In this document: positions 12,836 to 62,405 of the stretch, in pieces
Layout: every line of letters begins with the position of its first letter
Numbering within the stretch: the stretch's first letter is position 1
Virus record (IMG/VR): IMGVR_UViG_3300020205_000565
Span: 18,030 to 82,029 of that record
Length of the DNA stretch: 64,000 bases
Reading direction: 5' to 3' (one strand)
DNA from: a virus
Notes under the pieces: model-generated
Databases searched by the model: none
Seen by the model: only the letters and a program-made list of their open reading frames with translations
What the model was told of the DNA's origin: nothing
Translations under genes and position numbers: made by a program

Positions 12836-12899
12836 ATCTTATTGTAAAAATACGAAAAAAAATCTTTAAAGTTTAATAAACTTTTTAAGTTTAAATTTA

Positions 12900-15779
12900 T
12901 TATAGTAAACCAACTATATAACTATAAGGAACACTTCCTCCCTCTTCGAAATAGTAATTAGGATTATTTCCTACCCCTGGATCTACTGAAGCGGGCATCA
13001 TACCGTTGTAAGCATTATAGAAGTTAGCATCCATAGGATTTCCCATACCTACATTACCTTTACCTTTTGTCCAAACGTTTGATAAAGGTCCGGCGTATTC
13101 TCTAGCTAAGTCTGGGTTATCTCTTAAGAACTCTGCAAACTGTTGAGCATCATTATGACTAAGCATTGCATTTTGGTTAGCTACCATTTCTCTATTTGGA
13201 GCAAAGAATAGTTCACCGCCAGCCGCAGGATTAATTCCATATTCTGGATACATCGTATTCAGGGTTTGTGCTTTAGCTCTATTAGTAATTCTATTAGCTT
13301 CAGCTTGAGCATATGCATCACGAGCCTCACGTTTAGCGTTATCGTAGTTCTGGTTGGTTGTATTAACTTTATCTACGTAAGCCATCATCTGGCCGGCATT
13401 AAACTTCTGAGCGTCGTTCATTATATCAGCTTGCTTGTAAGCAAATTCGTTAGCTGTTCCAACGTTAAGATTATTATACTTACCCATTATCTTAGCAACG
13501 TTATCTGCCAAACTTCCAGATGCTCCTGCTATTCTAGCGCCTAATGATTGTGAAGATCCCGATGTACCTCTAAATGCATCGGACGTTTCTGTAAGCAAAG
13601 CATTGTTAGCTTGAATTTCTTGCTCTGGATTATAAGGAGTTGGCTCAGGTAACATAGGTTCGTATGATGAAAGAGACGGATAATATCTGTTGATATTAAA
13701 CATGTTTCTTCTAGCATTACCTTCTAGTATGCGGTCCTGTATAAAGTCTGGCGTAGGTTTTCCTGTTTGATACCTTGGAGATTCTCCAGCAGTAGGGTCT
13801 AATAATCTTTCGGTCTCTTCTACTGTATCTTCAAGAGGATTTACTTTTCTATCGTATGTAAATGCATCAGCATGCTCTAATCCTAATTTCTTATCATCGC
13901 TTAATCCTGGACGGAATTGATCTGGTTTAAAGAAATGTTCTACAGCATCTACATAGTTAAGATTAGGTATAACGTTACCGTCTTTATCTTTAATCTCCCT
14001 AGCCGTTCTAACTCTCTTATTACCTTTAACAAATGCAGGTGTGTACAAGAGATCAGGATTATTAATATTAGCAGAAATATGTGGATCATTTATATCCATA
14101 CCTAAAGAGTAGAACATATTTTTTCTGTTCTTTAACTTATCTTCTGCTGATGCCGCATCCCAATCATCTGCCGTCTTACCAGGATTTCTAGCTTGCCAGA
14201 AACGGTACTCATAAAACTTAGGGTCTGTATAACCAAAGAAACCTGTATTCTCAGAAGACTGTAAAGCAATCTGGTATTCTTTTTCACCAGGTACGCCTAG
14301 TACATTATCCTCAGCGCCGTAAGATAAAAACTTAGTTAGGAAATCTTTTTCTGCAGTAGTCATCTTATCACGTGCAGCTTTAAAAATATGCCATCCTGGA
14401 TCTTTATCTGCTTTGCCATCGTTGTCTGAATCCCATCTAGTAGCATGGTATTCTGCTCCTCCGGCCGCTGCTAATTTATCAAGAATTACTTTGGCTTTTT
14501 TCTTATCTTCTTCAAGATTTCCAGTATAGTTTGTTTTACCAGACTTAGTTGAAGCAATAGGTTTAGTCACATCATACTCTTGAACTTGGTAGTACTTACC
14601 ATCCTCTTCGTAAATATCTCCTTTGGTTACAGCTTCAATTTTAGGCTTAAGCTTAGTCTTATCAGCTACAGCAGGTTTAGTAACTTTCTTTACTATATAC
14701 TGTTTACCGTTCTTTGTTATAAGCTTTTCTCCTTCTTGTAATGTATAGTCCTGACTAGTATTACTAGTTGATATATTATTAATATCATTTATACGAACAC
14801 CTCGGCCGTCCTCATAGTAAGTATTGCCATTAGCATCTTTACGAAGATAGATACCAGTACTTGCATCTGGTCTAGGTCCTCTGTTATTATTTGCAGCATA
14901 GGTAGGTTGATTTCGAATCTGCTCTAACAACTGAGTATAATAGTTATTATAATACTCTCGTTCAGCAGTTCTTTGTGCTCTACGCTGCATCCGTCTTTCC
15001 ATTCTAGGATTATATACATCCTGTTCAGGATCAGTTTGACCTCCAGGTGCATACTGTCTTAAATGATTCATCTGTCCCCCGTGTCTAGCCATAGGCATTT
15101 GCTGAGGCATCATTTCAGATTGTTGACCTTCCATAGCGCCTTGTTGCATAGCCATCATTTCTTCTTGCCCAGGTTGAGGTGCTCCCTCAGGCTGTGGATT
15201 CATATCTCTTGGTAAAAACATTGCGGGATCTAAGTTATACTTAGCCATGTATGGCATAGATGCTGTAGCTATTCCTCCCGGAAATCCTTTCATTGATTCT
15301 TGGATCATAGCTAGCTTACCTAACTTAACGTTATAGTTAGCAATAACCATCTCCGCTGTATTAACTTGTAATGCATCAGAATTAGGATCTTGTAATATCT
15401 TACGGTAAGTATTCATGTCGTACTTCTTTGCAATCTCTGCTGGAGTATAACCTCCTTTTTTTGCCGGTAACCCAAATTCTGCAAGTAATACGTCATCCTT
15501 AATTCTCATAGATCGTGTATCACTAAAGATAAATGATTCAGGCGGGACAGCTAAAGCAACTCCCCCTTCAAAGTGACGCTTACCTCTAATGTTATAGTGT
15601 GCAGGTCCTCCTTGTTTATTAGGAATGTAAACTGTTTCGCCTCCTTCGGCTTCTAGATTAGCAGCATCCCTAGGTACTGCACTTAACGTATTACGAACTT
15701 CTACTTGTTTTTTACCAAGCTTATTCGGAATATACTGTGGGGCCATTTGGTTCCCCGTCTTTATGTTGTTACCGTACAT
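12900..15779 (-). CDS. Virion cargo protein (959 aa)
   Basis: N-terminal EAEGGE...GKRHFEGGV...FIFSD motif of a type I recognise from Bacteroidota phage virion proteins; Q/M-rich linker; xxxGG motifs; Asn/Ala-rich coiled C-terminus. Confidence 0.6.
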   Translation of the reverse strand: MYGNNIKTGNQMAPQYIPNKLGKKQVEVRNTLSAVPRDAANLEAEGGETVYIPNKQGGPAHYNIRGKRHFEGGVALAVPPESFIFSDTRSMRIKDDVLLAEFGLPAKKGGYTPAEIAKKYDMNTYRKILQDPNSDALQVNTAEMVIANYNVKLGKLAMIQESMKGFPGGIATASMPYMAKYNLDPAMFLPRDMNPQPEGAPQPGQEEMMAMQQGAMEGQQSEMMPQQMPMARHGGQMNHLRQYAPGGQTDPEQDVYNPRMERRMQRRAQRTAEREYYNNYYTQLLEQIRNQPTYAANNNRGPRPDASTGIYLRKDANGNTYYEDGRGVRINDINNISTSNTSQDYTLQEGEKLITKNGKQYIVKKVTKPAVADKTKLKPKIEAVTKGDIYEEDGKYYQVQEYDVTKPIASTKSGKTNYTGNLEEDKKKAKVILDKLAAAGGAEYHATRWDSDNDGKADKDPGWHIFKAARDKMTTAEKDFLTKFLSYGAEDNVLGVPGEKEYQIALQSSENTGFFGYTDPKFYEYRFWQARNPGKTADDWDAASAEDKLKNRKNMFYSLGMDINDPHISANINNPDLLYTPAFVKGNKRVRTAREIKDKDGNVIPNLNYVDAVEHFFKPDQFRPGLSDDKKLGLEHADAFTYDRKVNPLEDTVEETERLLDPTAGESPRYQTGKPTPDFIQDRILEGNARRNMFNINRYYPSLSSYEPMLPEPTPYNPEQEIQANNALLTETSDAFRGTSGSSQSLGARIAGASGSLADNVAKIMGKYNNLNVGTANEFAYKQADIMNDAQKFNAGQMMAYVDKVNTTNQNYDNAKREARDAYAQAEANRITNRAKAQTLNTMYPEYGINPAAGGELFFAPNREMVANQNAMLSHNDAQQFAEFLRDNPDLAREYAGPLSNVWTKGKGNVGMGNPMDANFYNAYNGMMPASVDPGVGNNPNYYFEEGGSVPYSYIVGLL

Positions 15780-15781
15780 AT

Positions 15782-18700
15782 TTATAGATATGAAAGTTTA
15801 CCACCTCTTTTTATAATCTGGTTTATTTGATCTTCTGTCAAATATACCTCGTCTCCTTCTTTTAAGTTCTCCATCATGCTGCCGCCCATCTGAGCATAAG
15901 TATTAAATCCAGAATGGAAAGCGTCATTACCATCAGGGTTTCTCTTACCTCTACGGAAGTCACCAGATAAAATATCATAGTTTCCTTCTGTGCTTCTCAT
16001 AGGATTAAAGTTATTAGACGCTTGACTCCTTGTTTTGTACTCAGTTTCGGCATATGCTGCATCTCTTCTTTTAAGCAAGTTAGTTGCAAAGTTAATAGCT
16101 GCAAGATCTTTCTCAGGATTACGAACTTTTTTCTTTTTAAACTTTGATTCTACATCAAAGCCATCGCCCATAGCTGTATCCTTATCTTCACTTTTCATTT
16201 TTCTTGAAAGATCACTTAAATCAGTAACTATAGGCTTTCCATTAAGGTCTTTAACGCCTAGATCTATTTTATCTGTCGAAAAATCATGCGACATAGGTTT
16301 ACCAAACATATCTGTAACACCTAGGTCAAGTTTGTTATCATATAAGCTATTCATATGATTCTGTATCATTTCTTGTGAACTAGGTAATGACCAATCCATA
16401 ATAGGAGTTGTACCAGGTTGTGCAGAACCAAATGGTCCACCATCATCGTATCTTCTCATAAATCTATGTAAGGATCCGCCTTCTTTTTTAAAGTATTGAG
16501 GTGCAGTATAACCAGTAGCTGGGCTAAAGTAAGTCTGATCTATGTAGTCTTGTACAGCACCAGATCTTCCTGACCAAGCGTTATACTGAGTACCCGGTCC
16601 ACCACTATTACTAGGAAAATCTGTTAGTACCCCACCCGCTAAATCATCAGTCCTAAGATTAGCATAAATAACTTTTCTATGATCTGTTATAGAAGATGTA
16701 AATGCTTGAGGATCATCCGCATACTGTTGATTAATAAGATCTTTGTTATCCTTCCATAACTGATCAGCATTTGTTTTTAACCAACTTCTATATTCAGGAT
16801 TACTAATTACTGGACTACCTTTTCCTGTATAACCTTTATCTACACCAGCAGCTCCTAACACCATTACTCTAGGATCATAACCCGCATTAAATACCTGATC
16901 CGCAGCAATCTCTCTAATTGGAGCAGGCATGTCATTAAAAGATTCCCACAGAGCTTTCTTTTTTGGATCTTTGGCCATTACCGAATCCCAATCTTGTTTT
17001 ACCTTATTAGCATCAGGGTACATGAATTGTCCAGCACTTTTATCTACGGCATAGTTTTTCCAGCTTGGATCATAGTTATCCGGAAGAGCAAGTCCCGCAG
17101 GTTTAGTGCCAAACCACTCACCTTCTGTTTTAACTATTTGATTTTGCGTTCTGTTTAAATCAAAATCAGGAGGAGTATAAGAAGGTGTTGATGGATTAGA
17201 AGGAGTTGATGGAGCCGACGGATTTTTACTAACAGTATTTCCTGGCTTTTGATTAGTACTATTAGCTGTATTAGTACTATTAGCTGTATTAGTAGTATTA
17301 GTAGTATTAGTAGTATTAGTAGTATTAGTAGTATTAGAACTGCTACTAGGATTTGCAGTGTTATCGGCATTTCCATTATAACTAAAAGTCATTGACTTAA
17401 GTCTATTACCCGGATCCCTTGCTATACGAGTTTTAATCTCAGATACACCAAGTAACTGTGGATTACCATAACTACCAGCTAACATCTTTTCTCTAAAGTC
17501 TTTTGTAAGTCTGTTCTTAGAGATAACTCCTAAGTTTCTACCTCTCATGCTTCCGTAAGCAGCATAGGGATTATATCCACCGTAAGGATTATAATTGTCA
17601 TAATCCTGAGTTCCTCTTGAAGATTGGGGATTATATCCTAGAATTTCCCTTGTGACAGGATCTACAGCATATCTTACTCCGTTAATTACTGTTGTATTCT
17701 CATTAGTCGAGTTATTATGACCATCATAAAGTATATTACGATTGTCAGTTCCAATGATCTCAGATCCGTTTGGAGCAGTTTTTTTCTCTGTTTCTTTAGG
17801 AAGGTTATTTGGTTTATACCAACCCCCATTAGGGTTTTTAACATACCCTTGATCAGTAAACATTTTATCTTCTTCTGGACTACCAGTAGTAGTTAATGTA
17901 TTATTAGCAGTAGTACTAGGCTCTTTATCTCCTTGATACTTTTTTAAAGCTCCTCCGTCTCTATAAGGGATTTGCTCATAGCCAATACCTTTATTAAATC
18001 TATCTAAAGCATTTCTTTGTCGGGTATTATCTAAATTAGGAACAGACCATCCTGGTCCTTCTTTAGGGTATATATACTCTGTGCCAGCAGAATTATCAAG
18101 AGAATCGCTATAAGCACCTTGCATCATATCTCTAAACTGAGCACCATACTGGGGACCAACTCTATTAAATATATTATACGCCCCTATTTGTTGTTCAGAC
18201 ATAGCCTCCTCATTAGCAAGATCTCTGTTGTACTTATCTAAAAACTGATTGTAGGCAGCATTTTCTGGATGCCCTAAAACATTCCTTTCGAGGTCCAAAG
18301 TACGTTTTCCATAAAGTTTATGTTTCTTCATGTCAATTCCGGAGTTATCTAAATCCACCCCATAAATGCTTTTCATAGGAAAACCATGGTAGTCTAATTC
18401 TGTCCAAGGGTAGACAGTACCATAACCATTATAAGCTTGTCTTCTAAGAAGTTCATCATTGCCATATCCTAGTCTAATAGCTTCTTTATCTTTTTCGGTT
18501 TTAGCAAAAGCCATATCATATGCCGCACCCCTATTTTGAGGATCGCGATAATCTAAAACATGACCGTAGTTAGGATCAGTTTTTCCTAGATTTGATTCTT
18601 GAAGAGCAATAGACATTAATTCTTGAGGACTCTGACCATACTCTCTAGCCGCTCTTGCAATCTCACCTATTACGCCTGTATGATAATCACCACTTTTTAG

Positions 18701-19657
18701 ATCCACATTTGGATTAATAGGTTTACCCGAAGTAGCATTAATAGTACGAGGGTCATTGATATGTACACGACTTGGATAACTTGGTGCTTTATATTGTGGA
18801 TGTTTCTTACCATAACCCCAATTAGACTTTCTATAACTATCAATATCATCGTGCCCCATTTCTAAGGCGCGTTTATATACATCTAGGTTCATTGCATTCT
18901 CAAGTACCCCACTTAAACCGTCCTGAGCTCTTGGTAAAGCTCCTCCATCTCTTTTAGTAAAGAGTAAGTCATCTCCAAAGTTGTTAGCGTAGTTAGGATC
19001 GTTTGGTCTAAAAGGTTCTTGAGGATATGTGCTTGTAGGGGGTTGTGAGGGAGGAGTAGGTTTTTTAACGCCCGGTCTATCCCTATAGATATTCTTTTCT
19101 TTATAGTAATAATCATTAGGACCTAATGCTCCCATTCTTTGCACATAACCGGATACAGCATTTTGGCTTAAACGATTAAGGTAGTTAGAATTTTTTGCGT
19201 ATGCGTTTAAGTTTCCGGGATCATATGAATTCATAGGGTCGCTGCCCATACCCATACCATACTGAGCCATAGGCTGTTCTTGGTCTTGTTCCATGACGGC
19301 TTTCTCAAGATTTTTCTCAGCAGCATCGCGAATCTTTTGAATAAAAGTATTCATTCGATCACTATAAAAGCTCGTGTCTTCGTCCTCTTCTTCTACTGCG
19401 TTTGGATCGCCTCCTTCTTGCATCATAGGAAAACCATTGCTATAGTAATGGTCAAAGTCCTGCATAGTTTTTTCGTTTACTCCTCCTAAGTTTGCACCTG
19501 TTTGGTATTCAGGTAATCCCATAGGAGAAGCTCCCATAGATCCTACCGAACCTCCGTCAGGCATCCTTAAGAATAAATTACTTCCGCCATTCTGGAATCT
19601 TAGAGGAATCATTGTTCCTCCTTCCTTAGACTTATATCGATTGATCATTTTATTCAT
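15782..19657 (-). CDS. Modular cargo protein (1291 aa) with two lysozyme-fold-like domains
   Basis: SIALQESNLG...QAYNGYG resembles transglycosylase (SLT) motifs I and III. IVKTEG...DQVFNAG...AWSGR resembles GH108. Many xxxGG motifs. Confidence 0.6.
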   Translation of the reverse strand: MNKMINRYKSKEGGTMIPLRFQNGGSNLFLRMPDGGSVGSMGASPMGLPEYQTGANLGGVNEKTMQDFDHYYSNGFPMMQEGGDPNAVEEEDEDTSFYSDRMNTFIQKIRDAAEKNLEKAVMEQDQEQPMAQYGMGMGSDPMNSYDPGNLNAYAKNSNYLNRLSQNAVSGYVQRMGALGPNDYYYKEKNIYRDRPGVKKPTPPSQPPTSTYPQEPFRPNDPNYANNFGDDLLFTKRDGGALPRAQDGLSGVLENAMNLDVYKRALEMGHDDIDSYRKSNWGYGKKHPQYKAPSYPSRVHINDPRTINATSGKPINPNVDLKSGDYHTGVIGEIARAAREYGQSPQELMSIALQESNLGKTDPNYGHVLDYRDPQNRGAAYDMAFAKTEKDKEAIRLGYGNDELLRRQAYNGYGTVYPWTELDYHGFPMKSIYGVDLDNSGIDMKKHKLYGKRTLDLERNVLGHPENAAYNQFLDKYNRDLANEEAMSEQQIGAYNIFNRVGPQYGAQFRDMMQGAYSDSLDNSAGTEYIYPKEGPGWSVPNLDNTRQRNALDRFNKGIGYEQIPYRDGGALKKYQGDKEPSTTANNTLTTTGSPEEDKMFTDQGYVKNPNGGWYKPNNLPKETEKKTAPNGSEIIGTDNRNILYDGHNNSTNENTTVINGVRYAVDPVTREILGYNPQSSRGTQDYDNYNPYGGYNPYAAYGSMRGRNLGVISKNRLTKDFREKMLAGSYGNPQLLGVSEIKTRIARDPGNRLKSMTFSYNGNADNTANPSSSSNTTNTTNTTNTTNTTNTANSTNTANSTNQKPGNTVSKNPSAPSTPSNPSTPSYTPPDFDLNRTQNQIVKTEGEWFGTKPAGLALPDNYDPSWKNYAVDKSAGQFMYPDANKVKQDWDSVMAKDPKKKALWESFNDMPAPIREIAADQVFNAGYDPRVMVLGAAGVDKGYTGKGSPVISNPEYRSWLKTNADQLWKDNKDLINQQYADDPQAFTSSITDHRKVIYANLRTDDLAGGVLTDFPSNSGGPGTQYNAWSGRSGAVQDYIDQTYFSPATGYTAPQYFKKEGGSLHRFMRRYDDGGPFGSAQPGTTPIMDWSLPSSQEMIQNHMNSLYDNKLDLGVTDMFGKPMSHDFSTDKIDLGVKDLNGKPIVTDLSDLSRKMKSEDKDTAMGDGFDVESKFKKKKVRNPEKDLAAINFATNLLKRRDAAYAETEYKTRSQASNNFNPMRSTEGNYDILSGDFRRGKRNPDGNDAFHSGFNTYAQMGGSMMENLKEGDEVYLTEDQINQIIKRGGKLSYL
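17252..17337. repeat. 9-bp tandem repeat encoding a (NTT)n/NTANST linker
   Basis: About five agtagtatt units plus two degenerate 18-bp units are directly visible. Confidence 0.9.
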
Positions 19658-19697
19658 AATGTGCTAAGATAAGCATTATACTATAAGATACTGATTT

Positions 19698-22600
19698 TTA
19701 CTTGGTTTTCCAATTGTTAGGTAAGGCGTTTATTTTTACGCGTTTAGTCTCTCCTCCCTTTTTTTGTTTAGGATAAGTTGGACCATAAAGCTCACGTAAC
19801 TTAGTTTGTAAATCGGATAGGTATTTTGCTTGATTAGGGGTAAGCTCCCGCATTTTTACAGTTCCTGCGGCATCATCCCAGTATTTCATGCTGTTATTAA
19901 AATCACCTATTTCAGATAAAAGTCTTTTACGTACATTCGATACATGTTGTGTAGATGTGTAATCTAATAGACCATGTGACATAAATGGTTTTCCAATAAA
20001 TTTATCAAGCTTAACTGTAAAACCCCTTGGTGTTTCCATAGTTTGCGGTAGATTTGGATTTGTTGCACCTGTAGGAATGGTTTTCATAAAAAGTTTGTCT
20101 TGTACTTTTGTAGGGAGTAACCCTTGTATTTTTTTGGGAACTAAATCTGAAAATTTTATGAATGGTTCTATGTCCCATATGTCATTATATTCTAAACCAT
20201 TTTCCATTAATCTTTGGTTATATCCGCCCAGCAGGTAGTTATCTCTATGTAATGTTATAGCCTTGTCTAAAGGTTGCATAACCTCAGAAAACTTACTAGA
20301 TCCTTCGCCTGTAAGTCCTCTAGACATCCTATCAACTACTCCTGCAAATACTTTATCTTCAGGAATATTATAAATATCCATTCCTCTTAAAGATCCCGGT
20401 GGATAAGCAGCATGCAGGCTAGGAGCAGTATTCGCCATATTAAAAGTTCCGAATTGTTGGGGCATACCTAGATATGCTCTCCATCCGTCACTTCTTATTT
20501 GATTTTCAGCAAGTCTTTCTTCCCAAGCAGCCTTACTCATTTGAGTTCGTAAATTATTTTTCCAACCACCCCCTCTAATATTACTTATCGTCTGCTGAAC
20601 TTTATTTTGAGCTGGACCGAAACCCGAATATCCAATAGGTGTGAGATAATGATTAGCTAGTTCTGAGAATATTGGTTTATATCCTTGTCGTTGATTAGAT
20701 GTTATACCTACTTCAGCAAGTTGTCTCTGAGCAATTTCAAAATCAGTTAAACCTGCCTGTAGTCCTTCATTTTGAATTTGAGCTAATGCTCTTCTTGTAT
20801 TATACGATTCCATAAAAGCCGAAGTAATAGGCATTGCCGCCTCTACTCCTGTTTTTATTATAGCTCCTGCAAAAGGCGCTATTTCTAAAGCAGTAAATAA
20901 ATTCTTAGCAACAGCATCTGCATAATCAAGCGGATTACCTGTAGAGTTAGCATGTTTCCAAGGTTCCGAAACTCCTCCGCTCATTATTGTATTTGCCCCC
21001 TTTACTCCAAATCCGTAAGTTAAAGCATTACCTGCATTAAGCCAAGGAACAGCTTTTGGGGCTGCATTTAGGAGTTGTCTTACACCAGCCCCCGTAGCTT
21101 GCATAAGGGGGGATGATGATGTTGCTCCGTAAAGCATTTCTCCAAGACCTGCTAATCCCGCTTCACCAAGAGCAACAGGGGCCATTAATAAACTTTCAAA
21201 AATAGGCACACTAGGTAAACCTGCCGGATCGTTAGGATACGGCATCTGCCAGTCCGGATCTCCCGGTTGAGGAATCCTAGGTGTTAAACCATTTACCTGA
21301 TCCCATTTTGCAACAAATTCATCTTCTGCCATTCTTCTATCAGCAGCAGCATTAGCGTCAGCTTCTTCTTTAAGTTGTTTAAAATTAGCTGGTAACTTTT
21401 GTGTAGGTACTTTAGTAGACTCTGATACTGCTGTAGGTCTAGCAACTTTCCTTACATCTCCAACAAGATTTTGTTTTACAGGAGGAGCTGCATTTTTATA
21501 GTCAAGTATGTTTCTCCAATCTGGTGGGCCGTACTGAGCTTTAGGTAAACTATTTATCTTAACTCTTCTTAGATCTGGTACAGAGATACCTCCTCCGCTT
21601 TTATACTTAGGGTATTGACCGCTTTTTAACAAATCTATCTTTTGTTCTAAGTCAAGAGCTGGTCTATAGTTACGTCCAACTGATGGAGAGGCTGAACCAA
21701 AAGGAGCAATTTGATTCAGTTCAGTCTGAAGTGCTTTTGACAAATCGTCAACATACATGGTTGATGTATAGTTTAGGTTACCGTGCGACATGAATGGCTT
21801 TCCAACAAATTTACTTACCGGAATTTTCATTTGTCTAGCTTGTGTAACAAAGAATGGTTGATTACTATAGCCGCTAGAAGTATGGCTAGGATGTGTTGAG
21901 GCACGTGATATAGGAACCTCCTTATAAAAAAGTTTTTCTTTCCATTTTTCCGGCATGACCCTTTTAACGCTTTTTGGTACCAAGGATGAAAAATTAATTG
22001 TCGGATCTAAATCCCATATATCGTTATACTGTAATCCATCTTTTGTTAGTACTTTATTATACCCTCCCATAAGTATAGGATCCCTATCTAATAATATTGG
22101 TTTATCTAAGGGGCCCATACCATCTTCGCGTAGGCCGTATCTTGGCCCAATTGTATTAGTTACTTCGTCAAAGCCGGTACCAAATATTCTGTTTTCGGGA
22201 ATATTATAAATATCCATTCCTGCTAAAGATCCAGGCTTATAGGCCGGATGCATTACTGGAGCAGTATTTGCCATATTAAAAGTAAAATTTTTCTGAGGCA
22301 TACCTAAATAAGTTCTCCATGCGTCATCTCTTATATTCAGATCACGATTTGCCTGACGTATAGCATTTGCTTCAGCTGCAGATGTTTCTGCAGTTATGTT
22401 TCCCATAGCTGCTCGTCTTGGAGCTTCCCATCCATTAGTTTTAATATTACTCAAGGTTTGTGCAATCTTTGACTCACCTGCTCCGGTGTATCCAAAAGGC
22501 GTTACATACTTATTAAATAATTCTGATGCACCTGGGAAATACCCCCTACGTTGATTAGCTGTTATACCTACATCTGATAATTGTTTTTGTGCAATTTCAA

Positions 22601-25600
22601 AATCGTTTAGTCCTAGGGCCCTACCTCTTCTTTCAATTTCAGATAGTTGTCGTCCTACTTTTGTAGTATAATTACTAATCTGATTAGGGAGTCTAGGTAT
22701 ACCCCTAACAGCAGGAACTGCTGCAGATAAATCTAAATAATTACTTACTGCGTGATCTCTATATTTAGGGTCAAATAATCCTAAGGTTTGTCCTAATAAA
22801 TATTCACCCGGATGATCTACAATTTGTTCTCCTTGCCTATAAGCAGCGTTCCCTAAAAATCCTGGTAGACCTGCTGCCATATCTACTACAGAAGTCATAG
22901 GCGATCCTACACCATAACCTTCATAAGGATTATGCATTCCCATGTATCCACTTGGAATATCATAACCTCTATTAACAGCAGCTATAGTTTCCATAGGATG
23001 GCTTATAGCAGTCCATGCTCGTCTTGCAAATTTCTCAGTATCACTTCTAGTATCTGCACTAAGTTCATCCCTGCGTTTCAGTGCCTCCGGTAAAGCATCA
23101 TAAGCTGCTTTTTCTTTCATCATATCTAAAATCTGCGGACCACTTAAACCTTCCCAATCTATAGGGGCATTAAACATATTAGCAGGCCTTGTAGATTCTG
23201 CTACGGCTGACCCTGATATTAGATCCTGATTCATTTTTTTGAAATCAAAATCTGAAAAAACATTTTCATTTGCTGGGGCTGCTGATGCAGTCTTAGGTCT
23301 TGGTCGGAGATCAAATGTATGTTTATATTCATCAGGGATATTAATCCCAAGTTGAGGTTTAAAGTTAATACTAGGAGTAGGTAGTTTCTTTTGTTGGAGA
23401 TTAGCTGGAATATTTAATTTAACCTGCCCTTTAAGTTGATACTTATCTAGTTCTCCGCCTTCCTGTAATTTAAAACTTTCACTTGCTTCGTTCTTTCTCC
23501 TTTTTTGTAATCGTTTCTGTTGTTCTCTAAAGTCCTCAACTTCATTGATAGCATCCTTTACATCAGTATACATTTTAATATCAGGATTATAATTTACACG
23601 AGCTGTACCCCCGCTTGGACTATAAAATTGATTTTGTTGCGCATCATCTAACCATTGTGATGTAAGGGTAGCACCTAATAATTTTGAGGTATAAGTACCA
23701 TCGCCATTATCTTTCTTGTAATGCAAATAAGAAACACCAGGATTACCACTATCTTGTAATGTATAATTTTCACTGGAATCCTGAAATGTCTTAGAGTCTT
23801 CTTTAATATCTTCCGGTTGACCTTTTACTTCTACAGGTTTATCTATTACAGGTGTTTCTTGTTGTTTAGGTGTTTCTTCTTTTTTAGGAGGATTAAGTTT
23901 TGCTTTTAATTCTTTAATTGCGGAAGCCTTATCTTTATAAGGACTACCGCTTGTTCCAAACTTTTCTAAACGTTGTATCCTTTGTTTAGTAGTAAGTTTT
24001 TTCCAAGGAGTTACTGCAAGTTTATCGTAAGTATAAATAGAAACCTGGTCACCTGATACTAGATCTTCCATGCCCTTTAAATACTGAGGAGATATTCTAG
24101 TGTCATATAGCTGCATAGGTGAATCCATATTAAGAATAGTATTTGCGTTTTCCCTCTGTTGAAACTTATAATCATCTAACTTTTGGTATGCGTCAGTATC
24201 CCAAACGGGGTCTTGAAGACCATTGGTTGTCATGACTTCACCATTTTTGTATTTAGTTCCAGGTATTGATTTACCAGGAATAAGTCTAGAAATTTTCATA
24301 TTGTCATATATCCATTCTCTATCCTCTGGTTTAAACTGAACAGGTCCGCTATGAAAGCGTTTAGTATATCCAGCAGACTTATAAAAATTCATTATATCAT
24401 TTGCATGGTTTGCTACCATACTAGAATCTGCTGCCGTTGCTAATCCTCTTTGTGCTTTAGGTAATTCACCGCCCTTCTTACCCATTGGTATAGCATATGG
24501 ATCTTTTTTATTACCCGTAGATACTTGAGAGTCATGAATCTTTTTTAGTAAGTCTCCTCTACCACGAATTAATTTGTATAGGTCAAAACTTGTACCATCG
24601 TTATTTTTAATATCAGCATCAATGATGCTTTGTATTTCCTCATTAGTATAATCTTTTACAGGATCAATATTATTTTGCATACGCCATTCATTTAGTCTGG
24701 CTCTTATTTCAGTAGGATTATAATAATAGTCTGTTAATTTCTGCTTTTCACCAAAAAGACTTCCTAAACCACTTGATGAGTCCATGTCCTCCTTATTAGC
24801 AAAGGGTAAATAAACACCGCTTGCTTTATTAACTTGATCGGTACCTTCAGGACTTGGTTGTTTATATTCCTGCGGAATAATATTATCTAGTACGGCATCT
24901 TCTTTATTGTATGCTGGAGTTAACATTCCAGCAGGATTTTGAGGATGATTATAATCTAAATAGTGACTCTCTTCATGAGCCATTACACTTGGATTTTTAA
25001 ATCCACTTGGTGGTATGAATATAGAATTCATTAACGGTAATATGTTTACAGCGCGCGAAGCCATGTATACCCCTCCTGTATCAGGATGATCTTTGTCATA
25101 CTCTTCTTGAGAACCATAAGGCTGAAAGTCTACATTTGGTAGTCCCGCAAGTCTTCTATTAGCAACTTCTGTAAATTGCGGAAGTGCTGCTCTTTTAGTA
25201 TACCAGTCCCTATAAAAATCATTAACCTGATCCCTACTTTGAAAATAGTCATTTCTAAGTTCAGGATCATAACTATTCCAATCAATGTAATTCTGTGAAT
25301 GTCTTACTCCTGATGGTATTCTTGCTTCTGGTAAATCACCTGTAAATCCTAAACCCGGATATAACCCATATGGGTTATATCTTCCAAGATAAGGAACCTC
25401 ACCGTCGTATGAATATTGAATATCAGGTGATGGACCTAATTCAGCATCTACCTGACTCATAGAAGGTACGTTATCCATTCTAAAGGCAGAGGAACCATCA
25501 GGGTCATTTATGTGGCTCATGAAATAGTCAAGTCGTTTTTCCCCCAACTTCTGATCTCTAAAAAACCTATCTTGCTCTTCTAAAGGAAGTTGTTCTTTTT

Positions 25601-28478
25601 GAAGTGGTGTTAATTTCATAAATTTATCCCAATCATCCCACGTAGGTGTGCCCCCGTTTTGAAATTTAGCAGGTGTATATTTAGTATCAGGAGCTTTCGT
25701 AGGTTTAGGTGCTCCTGTAATAAACCCTTTTAAAGTTCTTCTAACTGAGCTGTTAGCATAATCTTGAATAGCATTAGTTCCTACTCTGTTATAAAGGTAG
25801 TTACCATCTTTAGATTTACTTTTATGTCTCCAAGGTTTTTCAGGATCTACAGCTCCACCATATGCATAGCCTCCTGCTTTTTTCTCCGCTTCTATTTCTT
25901 CTTGTACTTTTTTCAGTCTTGCTTTTTCTTGATCTCTTTGTTGCTGTTGATATTGTTCATAGGCAGCTTTTTCAGCATTTACCTCATCAACATTTCTCTT
26001 TTGCATTTCTAAAGCTTTTTTTCTAGTCCCGCGTCGTTCTTCAATAATATCAAGAGGTTGTCGTAAGTCATGCCACATCCGGGCATTGGGATTAAAGTCC
26101 ACACGTGCGGTACCTCCAGCTATGCTATCAAATTCTTTTTGTTGGTCAGGAGTTAAATAGTCTTCTGTTAAAACAACCCCCATGTTGCCACTTTTACCAT
26201 GGACAACCTCGCCATTCTCATCATAAACTGTTCTATACAAATAAGCAGCACCTCCCCCATTACCTGTTTCATGTAATGAATAATTTTCTCTTGCGCCACT
26301 CTGTACAGTTTGTTCTGACTTCTTCCCAGTATTACTTTTATTATCTTCCTGACCTACCTGCTCTTTTGAATTAGAGGTTGACGTAGTGGCGCCGCTACTT
26401 GTACCTGTGTTAGAAATAACATCTGTTGTTTTACCGGAAAGAAGATTTATTACAGTCTCTCTAGGATTACTTTCAGATTTAATCTTATTAAGCAATTCTA
26501 TGTTTTGCTTACCGGTACCACTATAATCTTTTATTCCGTATTTCTCAGCTAGTTTTTTCCTTTCGGAATAGCTACTTTGTTTTTTATCTAATCCTAATTC
26601 GGTTCTCATATAGTAACCTATATCAGTATTAGCGTTTGGTTCTTTTTTAACTATATTAATAGCTTCGTAAACACCATTTCCGCTAGTTGAATTACTACGA
26701 GTTTTTGGTTTTTTGGCCCACTTATTTTGGTCATATTCAGCCGCCCCCGACTGTGTAGCAGGGTACCCAGACTTAGCAGCATTAGCTATTGTCTGTGCAT
26801 CATATACCATAGGGTTTTTACCCCATTTATTTTTTTCGTATAGCGCCGCTCCTTCTTGTGTTGCAGCATATCCTGATTTAGCAGCATTACTTATGGTTTG
26901 TTTATCATACCCTTCAGCACGTCTTCCGCCATGAGCCATAGCAATGTCTGGATAATTTTGGATAAGTCTTGGATCATTCCAATCTTTAAATGGAGTACCG
27001 TCCAATATGCCATACTCTAATCTTTTTCTTTTATCTTCAGGACTTAGTATAGACCAAGGAGCCGTATAAAATTTTTCATATATCGGCATGTCGACAATAT
27101 CCGCGTTACCTGAAAAATATCCCGGAGCCGTACCTTGCAAACTAAAAGTAGATCTTGGATCTATTCTGATGTCGTATAATGCTTTTGGGGCATCTGTATT
27201 AAGAATTTTCTTATGGTCATCAGCATATTGTCTAAATCTATACGCGTTTTCCCATTCGGCAAGACTTTCGTTAGTTAAATTTTGTACACCTCCAATAAGA
27301 TTAAGTCCTCCTGCTAGCGCCATTGCCCCAGCTTCCCCTAAACTAAGAGAAGGTATTTCAACGTCGAACTTAGGTAAGTCTATTGCAAGACCGCCCTGGC
27401 CTAAATCATCTGATCCTATAATTGTTTGTCTTCCTCCCACATGCAAAGTTGTCGGAGTAGTGGATTTATCTGCAGCTTTTTTAATCTTATCCATACCTAT
27501 CATCCTCACACCATTTCTAGATCTGGCTGGTTCTTTATCTCCAACTTTAGATCCTCCATAGTAACCTTGAGAATTATACCAATCTATGACTTGTTGAGCA
27601 GAGTTTGCTACATCAAGGGAATCTTGAAAACTAGCAGGGCCACCAGGACCACCAGGGCCACCAGAGCCTCTTCCATACTGTGCTTTAGGTAATGAATGTA
27701 TCTTAACTCTTTTCATTGCCCCGCCATTTTTCTTATTTGGAAAAATAGATGAGTTACCCTCTTTTATATATTGCTCATATTGTCTAGCCTCCCCCTCTAA
27801 TGTTGATGGATCTGCATATTGTAAATTTTCAGCACCAACAAAAGATAAGTGACCATTCTCGTCTGGTTCAGAACCATTTCTTAGTTTATCCCTAGGAATA
27901 AACTGTAAACTTGGATCTTGCGCAATCATGTTATCTATAGTTCTATTTACGTCATTATCTCTTCTATTATAGTAACCTTCAATTGCTTCATTAGATGCTG
28001 TAGTCAAATTAGGTCTTTTACCTAATGGACCTAGAGAACTCATTCCACCGCTTAAATTTTGCAAGTGATGTAATAGTTCATGCTGCATCCACCAATCATT
28101 ATTCTCTATTGAGCCTGGTCTTGTATCTTGATTAATTTGACCTTGTACTGGGTTATATCCTGTATACTCATCTGTTTCATTTATTCTAGGATAAACAAAA
28201 TTTTGTAAAGCCTCTCTATATTGTGGAGGTAGTTGGTAGGATGGTCCTCCCATTTGAGCCATAGGAATTTCGTAGACCGAATTACCCGGAAACTGATAGT
28301 CTGCGCCAGGCATCATAAGTTTCCGGTTGCCAAAGTTATCAATACCTAGTATGGGTCCTTTTCTTAAAGGTGTTCCATCATCTTCTTTCATGGTAATCAT
28401 GCCAGAAGGAATTTGAAGATAAGGTTCGTTCTTGTCCTTAGAATTTTTTTTATAACCTTTGGTCGAAACTTTAGCCAT
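19698..28478 (-). CDS. Giant modular (polyvalent) cargo protein, 2926 aa: two zincin domains, a peptidoglycan-binding-like domain and three duplicated domains
   Basis: HELLH at 28068-28082; HEESH at 24963-24977 followed by TEIRAR; SSYSERKKLAEKYGIKDYSGTGKQNIELL (DUF3597-like); internal duplications; RVKIxxLP linker occurring three times. Confidence 0.7.
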   Translation of the reverse strand: MAKVSTKGYKKNSKDKNEPYLQIPSGMITMKEDDGTPLRKGPILGIDNFGNRKLMMPGADYQFPGNSVYEIPMAQMGGPSYQLPPQYREALQNFVYPRINETDEYTGYNPVQGQINQDTRPGSIENNDWWMQHELLHHLQNLSGGMSSLGPLGKRPNLTTASNEAIEGYYNRRDNDVNRTIDNMIAQDPSLQFIPRDKLRNGSEPDENGHLSFVGAENLQYADPSTLEGEARQYEQYIKEGNSSIFPNKKNGGAMKRVKIHSLPKAQYGRGSGGPGGPGGPASFQDSLDVANSAQQVIDWYNSQGYYGGSKVGDKEPARSRNGVRMIGMDKIKKAADKSTTPTTLHVGGRQTIIGSDDLGQGGLAIDLPKFDVEIPSLSLGEAGAMALAGGLNLIGGVQNLTNESLAEWENAYRFRQYADDHKKILNTDAPKALYDIRIDPRSTFSLQGTAPGYFSGNADIVDMPIYEKFYTAPWSILSPEDKRKRLEYGILDGTPFKDWNDPRLIQNYPDIAMAHGGRRAEGYDKQTISNAAKSGYAATQEGAALYEKNKWGKNPMVYDAQTIANAAKSGYPATQSGAAEYDQNKWAKKPKTRSNSTSGNGVYEAINIVKKEPNANTDIGYYMRTELGLDKKQSSYSERKKLAEKYGIKDYSGTGKQNIELLNKIKSESNPRETVINLLSGKTTDVISNTGTSSGATTSTSNSKEQVGQEDNKSNTGKKSEQTVQSGARENYSLHETGNGGGAAYLYRTVYDENGEVVHGKSGNMGVVLTEDYLTPDQQKEFDSIAGGTARVDFNPNARMWHDLRQPLDIIEERRGTRKKALEMQKRNVDEVNAEKAAYEQYQQQQRDQEKARLKKVQEEIEAEKKAGGYAYGGAVDPEKPWRHKSKSKDGNYLYNRVGTNAIQDYANSSVRRTLKGFITGAPKPTKAPDTKYTPAKFQNGGTPTWDDWDKFMKLTPLQKEQLPLEEQDRFFRDQKLGEKRLDYFMSHINDPDGSSAFRMDNVPSMSQVDAELGPSPDIQYSYDGEVPYLGRYNPYGLYPGLGFTGDLPEARIPSGVRHSQNYIDWNSYDPELRNDYFQSRDQVNDFYRDWYTKRAALPQFTEVANRRLAGLPNVDFQPYGSQEEYDKDHPDTGGVYMASRAVNILPLMNSIFIPPSGFKNPSVMAHEESHYLDYNHPQNPAGMLTPAYNKEDAVLDNIIPQEYKQPSPEGTDQVNKASGVYLPFANKEDMDSSSGLGSLFGEKQKLTDYYYNPTEIRARLNEWRMQNNIDPVKDYTNEEIQSIIDADIKNNDGTSFDLYKLIRGRGDLLKKIHDSQVSTGNKKDPYAIPMGKKGGELPKAQRGLATAADSSMVANHANDIMNFYKSAGYTKRFHSGPVQFKPEDREWIYDNMKISRLIPGKSIPGTKYKNGEVMTTNGLQDPVWDTDAYQKLDDYKFQQRENANTILNMDSPMQLYDTRISPQYLKGMEDLVSGDQVSIYTYDKLAVTPWKKLTTKQRIQRLEKFGTSGSPYKDKASAIKELKAKLNPPKKEETPKQQETPVIDKPVEVKGQPEDIKEDSKTFQDSSENYTLQDSGNPGVSYLHYKKDNGDGTYTSKLLGATLTSQWLDDAQQNQFYSPSGGTARVNYNPDIKMYTDVKDAINEVEDFREQQKRLQKRRKNEASESFKLQEGGELDKYQLKGQVKLNIPANLQQKKLPTPSINFKPQLGINIPDEYKHTFDLRPRPKTASAAPANENVFSDFDFKKMNQDLISGSAVAESTRPANMFNAPIDWEGLSGPQILDMMKEKAAYDALPEALKRRDELSADTRSDTEKFARRAWTAISHPMETIAAVNRGYDIPSGYMGMHNPYEGYGVGSPMTSVVDMAAGLPGFLGNAAYRQGEQIVDHPGEYLLGQTLGLFDPKYRDHAVSNYLDLSAAVPAVRGIPRLPNQISNYTTKVGRQLSEIERRGRALGLNDFEIAQKQLSDVGITANQRRGYFPGASELFNKYVTPFGYTGAGESKIAQTLSNIKTNGWEAPRRAAMGNITAETSAAEANAIRQANRDLNIRDDAWRTYLGMPQKNFTFNMANTAPVMHPAYKPGSLAGMDIYNIPENRIFGTGFDEVTNTIGPRYGLREDGMGPLDKPILLDRDPILMGGYNKVLTKDGLQYNDIWDLDPTINFSSLVPKSVKRVMPEKWKEKLFYKEVPISRASTHPSHTSSGYSNQPFFVTQARQMKIPVSKFVGKPFMSHGNLNYTSTMYVDDLSKALQTELNQIAPFGSASPSVGRNYRPALDLEQKIDLLKSGQYPKYKSGGGISVPDLRRVKINSLPKAQYGPPDWRNILDYKNAAPPVKQNLVGDVRKVARPTAVSESTKVPTQKLPANFKQLKEEADANAAADRRMAEDEFVAKWDQVNGLTPRIPQPGDPDWQMPYPNDPAGLPSVPIFESLLMAPVALGEAGLAGLGEMLYGATSSSPLMQATGAGVRQLLNAAPKAVPWLNAGNALTYGFGVKGANTIMSGGVSEPWKHANSTGNPLDYADAVAKNLFTALEIAPFAGAIIKTGVEAAMPITSAFMESYNTRRALAQIQNEGLQAGLTDFEIAQRQLAEVGITSNQRQGYKPIFSELANHYLTPIGYSGFGPAQNKVQQTISNIRGGGWKNNLRTQMSKAAWEERLAENQIRSDGWRAYLGMPQQFGTFNMANTAPSLHAAYPPGSLRGMDIYNIPEDKVFAGVVDRMSRGLTGEGSSKFSEVMQPLDKAITLHRDNYLLGGYNQRLMENGLEYNDIWDIEPFIKFSDLVPKKIQGLLPTKVQDKLFMKTIPTGATNPNLPQTMETPRGFTVKLDKFIGKPFMSHGLLDYTSTQHVSNVRKRLLSEIGDFNNSMKYWDDAAGTVKMRELTPNQAKYLSDLQTKLRELYGPTYPKQKKGGETKRVKINALPNNWKTK

Positions 28479-31400
28479 TAGCGAGGGGAGTTAAGTAGTT
28501 TATTATTAGTCACCTTAAGTAGCATCTTCACATTATCAGATACAGTTCTTATTAACACAACGTGATTAGCGTAATGTCTAAACTTCTTTCTTTCGAAAGG
28601 TGACTTATTTAAGTTAATGTTGTTATTATTTAATGTACGAATATAACCGTTAAGTTCTGTATTCCAAATAGGTTGTTGTACTAAAATTCCTCCGGCCTGA
28701 AATTCTCCACGGTTTCTAGTGAAGTCCCAGAACTGATTGAATCTATACTTTTGTTCTTCCTTAGAGAATAAAATGTTTATGATGCCTGTTGTTGCATCTA
28801 TCTGAGGATAGTTTACAATTATCGGGGCATTGTTTTTAGGACTAAGATTTAATCTTAGGTTACCGGAAACTTGCTCGTTATTATAAACGATAGCTCTATC
28901 AAAGTTAAAGTCTAATACCTCGTAACGATCAATACCATCTTGGTCATAAACATAGCATTCAAGTAAGTACTCTATGCTTCTTGTTGTAGTAACAGTTTGA
29001 CCAGTAGCAGAAATATAATCTATCTCAAATGGATAGTCTGCCCCATAGTAGTTACAGAACTTAGATGTATTATTATAGTGCTTCCAGATCTTACCAATTC
29101 CGTTATCGGTCTTAGTAGTAAGGAATCCTTTAATGTTAGATATACCAAGTTCCGGATGCCAGTCGTGGAAGGATAACCAAGCTTTAATTTTAGGATCAAA
29201 GCTTATTGTCCAGGATACGTTATCGAAGTAAATCGGATTTCCTAGTTCGATAGCATTATTACCATAGTAAAATTGATCCCCTTTCCGAATAGTAACCACA
29301 CCAATAAACTCGTCTTTAACTTTATAGTCAGTTTTAGAGAAGTATATAATTTGGTTTTCGTTATCAAACGTTGTTTGACATCCGATACCCATTATGGGAT
29401 TTCCTACCAGCGGGAAGTCTGGGAACTGATCTAATAGGAAATAATGTAGGTACTTAGAGAACCACCACTTCATTCCTAAGTCTGAGATAGGCTGCATTCC
29501 TTCTGCTACTGTAAAGATCTTACCTTGAGAAGCGCTCATCCAGTATACACCGGCCGGAGTATTAATTACTGATAGTCTATCCTGGCAAGAGCCATGTTGG
29601 AATTCTATATCAGCGTTACTTAAAGTTTGTAACGGTTGGCTAAATAGGCCACCGTCTCCAATAGTAATCTTTGTACCTGATGTAGTTTGTAAACTATCTA
29701 CAGCATTAAACATTACCGGGCTAGCTTTCTCTTGAAGAATAATAGCACCGTTTCTATTGATAGATTTAAATGCCGTTACCTTACTATCGAAATCATAGTA
29801 GTTATTTACTAAGAATATCTGCCAGTAATCTTTCTTGTCCTCCTGACTATTTGGTAAGGAGTAGATTACTCTATACGGATAATACTGATAGCATGTCTCG
29901 GCAACATATGGATCGTAAGATCTATTCTGCATAGATCCCCATGTTATATAATTATTCATCGTACGAGATACTCCTAGGGAGATGTCGTAGTTAAAGTAAT
30001 TACCAAACTTGATTATACTTGTATCAAATAATCCTTTAAGATCTTTAGTACCATAAGGATTGTAGAACTTCTCTTCTGGTAATTCTCCTTCATCTCTTAA
30101 GTCAATATTATATTCAGATTCTACAAAGAAGTCTCTTACTCCAGATTGGAATAAATACATTGTTCCGCGTAAAACACCTATGATGCCTTTATTTAAGCCT
30201 ACACCACCTGTATCATCATTTACAGCTTCTGTTGTTTGTGCACCTGCATACTTATCTAGATTATATTTTCCAGAAGGCATTGCGTCCCTTATATTACCAG
30301 CAGATATACCTAGTATCCCGTTTGAAACGTTTTGCATAAACTCACTTGCTGAAAACTTAGTAAAGTCTGCCCAAAAACGAGGATAGCTTATCATGTACTT
30401 GAGCGTATAGTCTATCTCAGTTCCTGCGGGAACATCATATAACCAGTCATAGAAATAGAAGAAAGTATTTTTCTCTGTATAACGACCTACATACGTATCG
30501 CCTCCAAATACAGCTGGGGATTTTATAACTACTACCTGCCCAGCATCAGCTTGAGTAAGTTCCTGGTTGAAAGACGTTTTAAATCTATTAACACAACCTG
30601 TAGTAATTTGATTAGCTGATTCTATTTGACCATACTGATTACGAAGTCTAATTTTAAGAGCTCCATACATACAAGATGTTGTAGCAAAGAATTTACCTGA
30701 TGTTGGATTGGCCGTAGTTATATCTCTGTTTATAACATCGTATGGTGTATTATCTCCCGGATCGCCACCATTTATTCCAGCATAAGCTCCTGCGTAAATG
30801 CTATTCTGAATAGCGGAACCAACAGTTTGTATAGATCCATCTGTGACAGTTGGCGCAAAAGCATTCTGCATGAAGATAGGATTATCTACAATAGAACCAT
30901 TAAGATTTTTACCTAGATGAATTGCTACGCAGTTAGGTCTAAATAAATTATTAACTTTATAGTTACCTATAAACTGGAACTGACCTTTTAAGTAAGAAAC
31001 ATCATTAATTAATCTTCGAGTATTACCGCTTCCTTGATACGCTGTTTTAATATTACCCGGCTGCAGTTTATGTAGATCAAGATGACTAACAGTACGAAGA
31101 ACAAAATCTCTATACGGTGCTAGAGCATACATTAAATCAAGTATACTATCTATACCTTGTGACCAGTAGTATGCAAAAGTTACAATACTATTTCCGGCTA
31201 ATACACCTGTTGGAACATATTGATAATCTCCATACGTAAGAGATCTACTTAAAGAAGGTGGTGCTAATCCAGCTGATGATGTACCCGATGTTGCTGATTG
31301 GGCTATTATATAAGCTGCTAATGCTTCATTCTCATCGGCATTAAGAGATGGATTTAATCCACCTAGTGCAGCAGCAAGTAAATGCACCGATGTCGCTGCA

Positions 31401-36138: not shown

Positions 36139-36177
36139 TCTCTTGTTTAGTCACGCTAAACCAACAAACGTGGACTA
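36110..36177 (-). ncRNA. Candidate 3'-UTR small RNA (hairpin with UGUUGGUUU loop plus terminator)
   Basis: UAGUC(C)ACGUU-UGUUGGUUU-AGCGUGACUA hairpin directly before the terminator. The loop is complementary to AAACCAAC motifs at gene starts. Confidence 0.45.
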
Positions 36178-36741: not shown

Positions 36742-36753
36742 ATTTTTAGTTTA

Positions 36754-45606: not shown

Positions 45607-45803
45607 TATCCGTTAACGCGTTTCAAGTTTGGGTTTGCTTTTTTAGCAGCAGAAGAAGCCTTACGAGCAGCAGAAGCTAAGATAGCTCCAGCAGCTGCTT
45701 TAGACACACCTTGCTTTTTTGCAATACTTGATTGTACTGCTTTAAATCCTGGATGACTTCCTCCTTTTTTATAGGATCCGCCACATTTTGCACAACCTGC
45801 CAT
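45606..45803 (-). CDS. Small Lys/Ala-rich basic protein
   Basis: CAKCGG, YKKGG, TAATG coupling to the next gene. Confidence 0.7.
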   Translation of the reverse strand: MAGCAKCGGSYKKGGSHPGFKAVQSSIAKKQGVSKAAAGAILASAARKASSAAKKANPNLKRVNG

Positions 45804-45815
45804 AGTACTATAGTT

Positions 45816-46436: not shown

Positions 46437-46437
46437 G

Positions 46438-46656: not shown

Positions 46657-46658
46657 AG

Positions 46659-60145: not shown

Positions 60146-60147
60146 AA

Positions 60148-60987: not shown

Positions 60988-61002
60988 AGTTTTATAATTT
61001 TT

Positions 61003-61185: not shown

Positions 61186-61199
61186 ATGTTTAAGTTTTA

Positions 61200-61850: not shown

Positions 61851-61851
61851 G

Positions 61852-62403: not shown

Positions 62404-62405
62404 AT

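Follow-up and report, generated by a model that had tools for sequence, protein, structure and literature searches.

What role might a short peptide ending in Gly-Gly play when it recurs some 20 times across three neighboring phage proteins? The question is raised by a stretch of viral DNA of 64,000 nucleotides (positions 18,030 to 82,029 of IMG/VR record IMGVR_UViG_3300020205_000565; hereafter, the window), in which three successive genes encode proteins of 2926 aa (P0001; 19698..28478), 1291 aa (P0002; 15782..19657), and 959 aa (P0003; 12900..15779), together termed the trio. All long open reading frames (ORFs) of the window lie on the minus strand, as do the modules, seams, and linkers located below. 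An initial annotation, made from the sequence alone, quoted 21 motifs of this kind, every one of which was found in the protein named. We found that the motif is real, conserved, exposed, confined to the trio, and coincident with recombination and fusion points. The most economical reading, which we hold tentatively, is that it forms an uncut joint between modules, serving both as a hinge and as an in-frame recombination seam of modular cargo proteins of the polyvalent type. The source contig (G000; 82 kb, ~68% complete) was compared with a complete relative (G001; 120,320 bp, 100% complete by direct terminal repeats, 114 ORFs), with a second relative (G002), and with three loci (L001, L002, and the distant L003, at 28% identity).

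Form and distribution of the Gly-Gly motif

Written as x-x-x-G-G, as in the initial annotation, the motif is too loose and is not significant alone: the trio contains 55 bare Gly-Gly dipeptides against ~38 expected (~1.4-fold, z ~1.9 per protein), and an unbiased, cross-trained position-specific scoring matrix (PSSM) over all Gly-Gly sites gave weak separation only. The real unit is longer. Its core reads Phi-P-x-A-[QKR]-x-G-G or [KR]-x-G-G and is often followed by x-L-P-K-A-Q-x-G or K-R-V-K-I-N-S-L-P-K-A-Q-Y-G. Patterns describing this extended form exceeded shuffled sequences 5- to 50-fold and were nearly absent from the other 21.5 thousand residues encoded by the contig: P.[AMGK][QRK].G occurred 12 times in the trio, a ~9-fold excess (1.3 in shuffles, 2 in the rest of the contig), [KRQ][polar]GG 18 times (3.2 in shuffles), GG.[LM].[KR][AFYV] 6 times (0.1 in shuffles), and LP[KR]AQ 4 times (0 in shuffles).

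A PSSM derived from the seam of the P0003 family gave 7 hits against 1.4 expected, all within the trio except for one in a 339-aa ORF (46997-48016). Since the four patterns above were composed after inspection of the data, independent support was sought. In the complete relative, the three proteins that follow the muzzle protein hold 8/9, 15/19, 6/6, and 4/4 occurrences of the four patterns, and the same peptides appear in three cargo proteins of L003. The motif is absent from the major capsid protein (MCP), the portal protein, and the 405-aa protein encoded between them (49751-50968, a putative scaffold), as well as from the giant proteins resembling RNA polymerase (RNAP); pattern counts in the contig and in G001 agree with the earlier remark on its scarcity in the capsid and portal proteins and TerL. 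We found no description of the motif in the searchable literature, and the conserved seam peptide is apparently a new, undescribed element.

Two further roles were considered and dropped: a transglutaminase site at the conserved Gln, which is often replaced by Arg or Lys, and a GlyGly-CTERM or sortase-type signal, as no transmembrane tail follows the motif. Separately, five or six tiny ORFs (60-90 aa) lie between structural genes at 45606-46969 (minus strand); their predicted products are basic and Gly/Lys-rich, and several carry K-x-G-G-like peptides.

The motif lies at module boundaries

P0001 is a chain of ~9-10 modules with internal duplications (residues 231-865 resemble 1315-1690, and 1934-2312 resemble 2556-2920), through which four of its motif copies are paralogous. 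In the AlphaFold2 (AF2) model of residues 1-275, two confident domains (1-75 and 80-249) were obtained, and both Gly-Gly pairs coincide exactly with the stretches (76-79 and 250-254) in which the predicted local distance difference test score (pLDDT) drops under 50. The first domain is a beta-rich N-module (residues 1-78; 28245..28478; pLDDT 82-90) ending in I-P-M-A-Q-M-G-G, and the second is a zincin module (residues 79-253; 27720..28244; pLDDT 80-94; HELLH at 28068-28082) ending in S-I-F-P-N-K-K-N-G-G. The linker K-R-V-K-I-H-S-L-P-K-A-Q-Y-G comes next (27672..27713); it recurs at 21528-21569, and a C-terminal variant lies at 19701-19745. The seam K-F-Q-N-G-G (residues 938-943; 25650..25667) precedes a second zincin module (residues 944-1337; HEESH at 24963..24977), and the other P0001 seams are found at 28245-28262, 27720-27734, 26925-26939, 25854-25868, 24444-24479, 23436-23471, 21591-21608, and 19752-19769.

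Fold matches of zincin module 1 were weak (VgrG2b effector, Z 4.6; ArdC, Z 4.4, Foldseek E 0.09), and Foldseek and VIA-align returned only weak zincin and beta-sandwich matches for residues 1-275 as a whole (Z <= 4.6). Neither zincin module matched a Pfam family, module 2 reaching only a sub-threshold Peptidase_M10 score (E 0.048). Stand-alone zincin proteins often end in S-I-F-P-K-N, without Gly-Gly; therefore, the Gly-Gly lies outside the fold and is required only if something follows it. The initial annotation had put many of the motifs at the boundaries of zincin, lysozyme-like, and duplicated domains, and the boundary placement holds, although Pfam did not confirm the label "lysozyme-like."

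In P0002, the seams lie at 19616-19633, 19583-19600, 19550-19567, 19409-19426, 18917-18955, 17930-17965, 16475-16492, 16436-16453, and 15881-15898, and its homologs are mosaics in which the modules between seams have been exchanged. The C-terminal mini-domain of P0002 ends in K-R-G-G-K-L-S-Y-L (15785-15811). Many cargo proteins are closed by a mini-domain of this kind (~25-35 aa; G-G-x-Phi-x-L-T-x-x-E-I-x-x-Phi-x-K-x-G-(G/Y)-x-Phi-E-(D/E)-Phi), which sometimes occurs in tandem and of which instances are the P0002 C-terminus (15785-15898), P0164, P0163, P0199, and L003 4477-7677 and 7736-10324; its Gly-Gly is probably a turn within a small fold and not a linker. P0002 also contains a 9-nt tandem repeat (17234-17359) encoding an (N-T-T)n / N-S-T low-complexity spacer, the length of which varies among homologs.

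For P0003, AF2 predicts a folded N-domain (30-190), a disordered linker, helical and beta regions, and a disordered tail (902-959, pLDDT <50). The linker is acidic and Gln-rich (66 residues, 191-256; 15012..15209; pLDDT <50) and contains M-P-M-A-R-H-G-G (15075-15092) and Q-Y-A-P-G-G (15039-15056), and the tail contains Y-F-E-E-G-G (12936..12953) 11 residues before the stop codon, with the Gly-Gly kept in 42% of homologs. The Gly-Gly pairs at residues 46, 57, 72, 109, 168, and 854 belong to folded domains and do not count as linker motifs. Compared with the AF2 domain boundaries, a check proposed in the initial annotation, motif positions fall at low-confidence hinges or in disordered linkers.

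Homology breakpoints were mapped by an exhaustive HMMER search with residues 1-1200 of P0001, which matched >1000 proteins; the limits of these matches fall at 78-81, 250-256, and 943-946, and the modules 1-80, 79-253, 250-700, 720-944, and 946-1200 match separate sets of proteins. Among 229 homology ends internal to the subject protein, 42% lay <=5 residues from a motif Gly-Gly (3.4% by chance) and 1% lay near non-motif Gly-Gly pairs. At MAHGG and YAYGG, which are weak sites, almost no breakpoints were seen. The AF2 hinges and the homology breakpoints together bear out the earlier claim that the motifs divide the trio into modules.

The modules so delimited recur in other combinations. Over 100 diverse proteins begin with the N-module, which in every case ends in E-[IT]-P-x-A-[QK]-x-G(G), after which the sequence is unrelated (a zincin, a Cys-rich or zinc-ribbon-like partner, or an L-T-x-x-E-I...G-G-Y-I-V-E-D mini-domain), and in P0014 a module is inserted between two copies of the seam G-G-A-L-x-K-Y-Q. 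Many relatives carry P0002-like and P0003-like sequences in one ORF of 1.7 to 2.2 thousand residues, where the junction is a tandem Phi-x-x-G-G array; other relatives start a gene inside the linker (M-[KR]-R-V-K-I-[ND]-S-L-P-K-A-Q-T-G), and the homologs P0018 and P0019 begin with the linker peptide. Where linker copies occur in unrelated contexts, their DNA is 75-87% identical, and two internal copies of P0001 are 85% identical over 39 nt between unrelated flanking modules. The zincins are replaced in L002 (3099-9959, 2286 aa), P0018, and P0019 by a module resembling NlpC/P60 or CHAP (G-D-I-V-Q-F...G-P-H-H-x-A-L-V, preceded by an upstream Cys), which shows that the enzymatic payload between seams is interchangeable.

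Selective conservation of motif Gly-Gly pairs

Within the families of the trio, motif Gly-Gly pairs are selectively conserved over other Gly-Gly pairs. Between 13/13 and 15/15 aligned homologs retain those of the P0002 family at 35, 82, 238, 568, 1060, 1258, and 1285, whereas the non-motif pairs at 611, 1008, and 1019 are kept in 1-2 homologs; RYDDGG is weak, being kept in 2/13. Of the >1300 members of the P0003 family, 48 were aligned; M-P-x-A-[RQK]-[YF]-G-G persists in these homologs down to 30% identity, and a second island, [FY]-x-x-G-G, is surrounded by a hypervariable acidic/Gln-rich linker. The second Gly is the more variable part: at P0003 seams, it is kept in 42-75% of homologs, and many homologs carry K, I, L, T, F, or N in its place at the best-conserved seam.

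The trio as probable cargo proteins

The cargo gene block starts with the muzzle protein gene (1781 aa; 28478..33823, minus strand; PF25731 crAss_MUZ, E 4.4e-29; phrog_37948). The trio genes lie directly downstream of it, in the same strand block as TerL, portal, and MCP, and are followed by genes for proteins of 1097, 1877, 4552, and 1917 aa. This gene order matches that of crAss001 (TerL, portal, MCP, muzzle, then cargo genes), the closest solved model, where the proteins encoded after the muzzle gene, C1 (gp45) and C2 (gp46), are cargo proteins kept within the capsid and the tail (Bayfield et al. 2023, PMC10172136). By analogy with C1 and C2, which the trio resembles in gene position, in predicted storage in capsid and tail, and in being predicted to be the first to leave, the three proteins are most likely cargo (ejection) proteins that are packaged in the particle and injected. 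The trio differs from gp45 in being much larger, mosaic, and enzyme-bearing; gp45 lacks the Phi-P-x-A-Q-x-G-G and L-P-K-A-Q linkers, and no junction motif is described for crAss001 (PMC10172136).

Sequence and structure searches gave few leads. P0003 showed no detectable similarity to crAss001 gp45 (BLASTP, E 0.46); the trio matched no Pfam cargo family, and Pfam and PHROGs searches with the trio and six sub-regions yielded no usable family. A tblastn search of 50,697 GenBank phage records with P0001 residues 1-275 (N-module and zincin) returned 0 matches. Related loci were not found with the single P0002 sequence, and three were found with the P0002 alignment as the query. The P0003-family profile found nothing in the PDB, the whole P0003 model gave nothing below E 0.9 in Foldseek, and leads from the ESM Atlas were weak (LPD23, Peptidase_M78, and DUF3920 at 0.87).

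The trio also resembles polyvalent proteins, which are very large, virion-delivered, multi-domain mosaics with zincin-like and wall-attacking modules (Iyer et al. 2017, PMC5512222). As in those proteins, many unrelated and independently distributed domains are joined in a single polypeptide, whereas for their MPTase domain P0001 shows two HExxH motifs and only weak ArdC/zincin fold matches, without a Pfam match. No LPD or MPTase Pfam family was matched in the trio, and the description of polyvalent proteins mentions neither linkers nor glycine motifs (PMC5512222).

A proposed uncut hinge and recombination seam

Gene context, restriction to the trio, selective Gly-Gly conservation, AF2 hinges, breakpoint clustering, gene fusions, and linker DNA identity all argue for a joint between modules, and we therefore lean, with some reserve, toward reading the motif in this way. 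Each independently folding module, such as the N-terminal beta domain, the zincins, the wall-hydrolase-like modules, and the duplicated C modules, would end in a short exposed peptide with Gly-Gly. The Gly-Gly would provide a flexible hinge that allows these giant proteins, like strings of beads, to be stored and then threaded through the portal and tail, and the conserved peptide, whose DNA is partly conserved as well, would provide an in-frame seam at which modules could be swapped, inserted, duplicated, fused, or split between related phages. We infer both these functions and that the joint stays uncut, the latter because searches revealed neither a Gly-Gly-type protease nor an HK97-type prohead protease, the zincins embedded in P0001 are accessory, the motifs form tandem arrays, and giant proteins of crAss001 and N4 are intact (see below).

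Several observations weigh against an uncut hinge and seam. The breakpoint excess is dominated by two junctions, and the homology ends are not independent events. The 6-8 residues before the Gly-Gly are conserved even where the linker is disordered and any fold is distant (P0003 228-235), which is unexplained by a mere hinge and typical of a binding or cleavage recognition motif, and conservation ends abruptly after the Gly-Gly, as at protease sites. The intact giant proteins of crAss001 do not carry the motif, and gp45, which has similar sites, gave 1-2 unique peaks per band and could be assigned to no band. In addition, conserved HEAWH and HEFAH motifs in the giant proteins encoded downstream make a trans-acting protease possible.

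Is the motif a cleavage site?

The first alternative, which we consider somewhat unlikely, is polyprotein processing: the seams would be cleavage sites at which the cargo is cut into separate effectors, either in the head or after ejection, by the embedded zincins, by HExxH domains of the giant downstream proteins, or by a host enzyme. Apart from the one-sided conservation just described, such processing would fit the exposed and disordered sites, the equivalence of split and fused gene forms at the seams, and the presence in P0001 itself of zincin-fold modules with intact HExxH. Candidate enzymes also exist further downstream. The 4552-aa protein (window 1-3909, minus strand, and upstream; G000 8280-21938) has a DprA-like stretch (phrog_768) and a conserved HEAWH, the 1917-aa protein (G000 2515-8268) has a conserved HEFAH, and both motifs are identical in context in the G001 orthologs; these two probably correspond to the giant proteins, associated with RNAP and bearing zincin-like domains, that crAss-like phages are known to encode. 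Zincin-mediated processing of crAss-like giant proteins has already been proposed, with no site described (bioRxiv 2020.03.07.982082; PMC5512222), as has processing of polyvalent proteins by an embedded peptidase (PMC5512222).

The proposal of the initial annotation that the trio is cut at its Gly-Gly motifs nevertheless found no direct support, and no cognate protease was detected. The search for a Ulp1/adenain-type protease that it had recommended gave no match, for PF02902 and PF00770 (Ulp1, C48; adenain, C5), at E <= 1 in G000, G001, or G002. The C39 peptidase (PF03412) and the HK97-type S78 protease (PF04586) were absent from the contig and its complete relative, the S77, S80, and U9/U35 families not having been searched; the small ORFs of the structural block matched no protease family, and the 405-aa gene between portal and MCP had no Pfam match.

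The embedded zincins, for their part, are accessory, being absent from L001, L002, and L003, all of which retain the motif; zincin module 1 is also absent from G001 and G002. Thermolysin-like zincins usually prefer a hydrophobic P1' residue, whereas the residues after the Gly-Gly are not hydrophobic. Tandem arrays are frequent, with sites 6-14 residues apart, so that cutting would release useless tiny peptides. The frequent replacement of the second Gly is a further difficulty, and natural C-termini keep 5-17 conserved residues beyond the Gly-Gly instead of ending at it. Nor does the motif occur in MCP, portal, or scaffold.

Related giant virion proteins are also known to remain whole. The N4 virion RNAP, which has an HExxH domain, is packaged unprocessed (PMC5512222). 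For crAss001, we re-analyzed the published gel peak lists, obtained by matrix-assisted laser desorption/ionization (MALDI), through peptide mass fingerprinting, bands 11-13 being outside the data set. gp47 and gp50 were assigned to band 3 (~270 kDa) and gp49 and gp44 to band 4 (gp49 at ~150 kDa), followed by the portal (band 5), gp26 and gp22 (band 6), gp22 and gp25 (band 7), gp25 (band 8), and gp23 (band 9). The giant virion proteins of crAss001 migrate intact.

The substrates of adenovirus adenain (C5) and of pS273R of African swine fever virus (ASFV) resemble the trio in that x-x-G-G sites recur in several virion proteins or in polyproteins made of pieces with distinct roles. In contrast, the Pfam searches of G000, G001, and G002 found no cysteine protease of these clans in this phage, and the trio motif is longer, occurs in tandem, and tolerates loss of the second Gly, so that a strict G-G at P2-P1 is not maintained; the parallel with adenovirus and ASFV processing remains an analogy. 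In T4 and phiKZ-like phages, a dedicated prohead protease cuts MCP and scaffold at x-x-Glu, and internal proteins bear capsid-targeting sequences. A short recurring motif likewise marks internal or ejected head proteins here, but the S78 search revealed no prohead protease, and MCP, scaffold, and portal lack the motif. Double-glycine leaders of the C39 type differ in being single and N-terminal, whereas the trio motifs are internal and multiple, and PF03412 is absent. A true cleavage code, under which a host enzyme or the conserved HExxH domains of the RNAP-associated giants would cut the trio, and its fused forms in relatives, into separate wall-degrading and channel-forming effectors after ejection, is in our estimate improbable; if true, it would be the first polyprotein processing of its kind in a tailed phage without a prohead protease.

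A possible docking role, or chance

It is also doubtful that the motif acts as a handle for multivalent docking or packaging, i.e., an uncut linear motif that would bind the portal, tail-barrel rings, muzzle, scaffold, or other cargo copies and so load the trio into the cargo zones and keep it there, perhaps in the form of a sticker-and-spacer condensate. Such a handle would account for a conserved short motif within long disordered linkers, for the tandem multivalent arrays at N-termini and junctions, for the confinement to three muzzle-adjacent proteins to the exclusion of the RNAP-like giants, and for the retention of the motif at protein ends where no module follows. crAss001 is again informative: gp45 has aromatic-x(0-2)-G-G sites (209, 263, 332, 427, and 562) that flank ordered segments, related [FY]-x-x-G-G-x-L sites are found in C1 homologs of other Crassvirales, and the aromatic-GG sites of gp45 adjoin segments that bind the tail barrel and portal. 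These sites, however, lie outside the bound residues that were resolved (214-245 and 425-552), most stand-alone zincin proteins have no Gly-Gly tail, and AF2 places no motif against a neighboring domain.

Finally, chance or compositional bias in low-complexity proteins rich in Gly, Lys, and Gln, with internal duplication swelling the count, is a very improbable source of the motif: the slight excess of bare Gly-Gly, the weak unbiased PSSM test, the paralogy of some copies, and the post hoc choice of patterns would all suit it, but it would explain neither the conservation across families to ~30% identity, nor the same restriction in the independent complete genome G001, nor the coincidence with AF2 hinges and homology breakpoints.

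Other features of the structural block

The window represents the structural block of an uncultured podovirus of the crAss-like group. TerL (53828-56041) and a P22-like portal protein (51076-53826) were recognized with PHROGs/Pfam, and the MCP (48105-49724) has a distant likeness to crAss-type and Cellulophaga podovirus capsid proteins; all three are encoded on the minus strand.

The other genes mentioned here are likewise on the minus strand. A ferritin-like protein of 197 aa (44293-44886; Pfam Ferritin, E 4.7e-21) is encoded within the virion structural block, between tail and fiber genes, an unusual location for an iron-storage or Dps-like protein. At 59528-63925, adjacent proteins of 216, 183, and 465 aa have a common N-terminus (M-D-I-L-N-W-x-Y/H-L/I-x-K-N/Q), and common Gly-rich repeats (12-15% Gly) occur in a 205-aa protein and the 465-aa protein; the proteins of this segment look like a small fiber-like paralog family with a common anchor. 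The tail/fiber region further encodes a 938-aa protein (39060-41876) in which a VWA domain start was recognized (E 1.1e-6) and, at 36175-38229, proteins of 188 and 491 aa with FN3 domains.

Implications for crAss-like phages

The crAss-like phages, which are among the most abundant viruses known, have to store and inject megadaltons of protein. A peptide marking the joints of the cargo proteins predicted to be ejected first offers a concrete experimental handle on this process. Read as a seam, it would also account for the evolution of these giant proteins, which would proceed through in-frame exchange of modules at a common seam.

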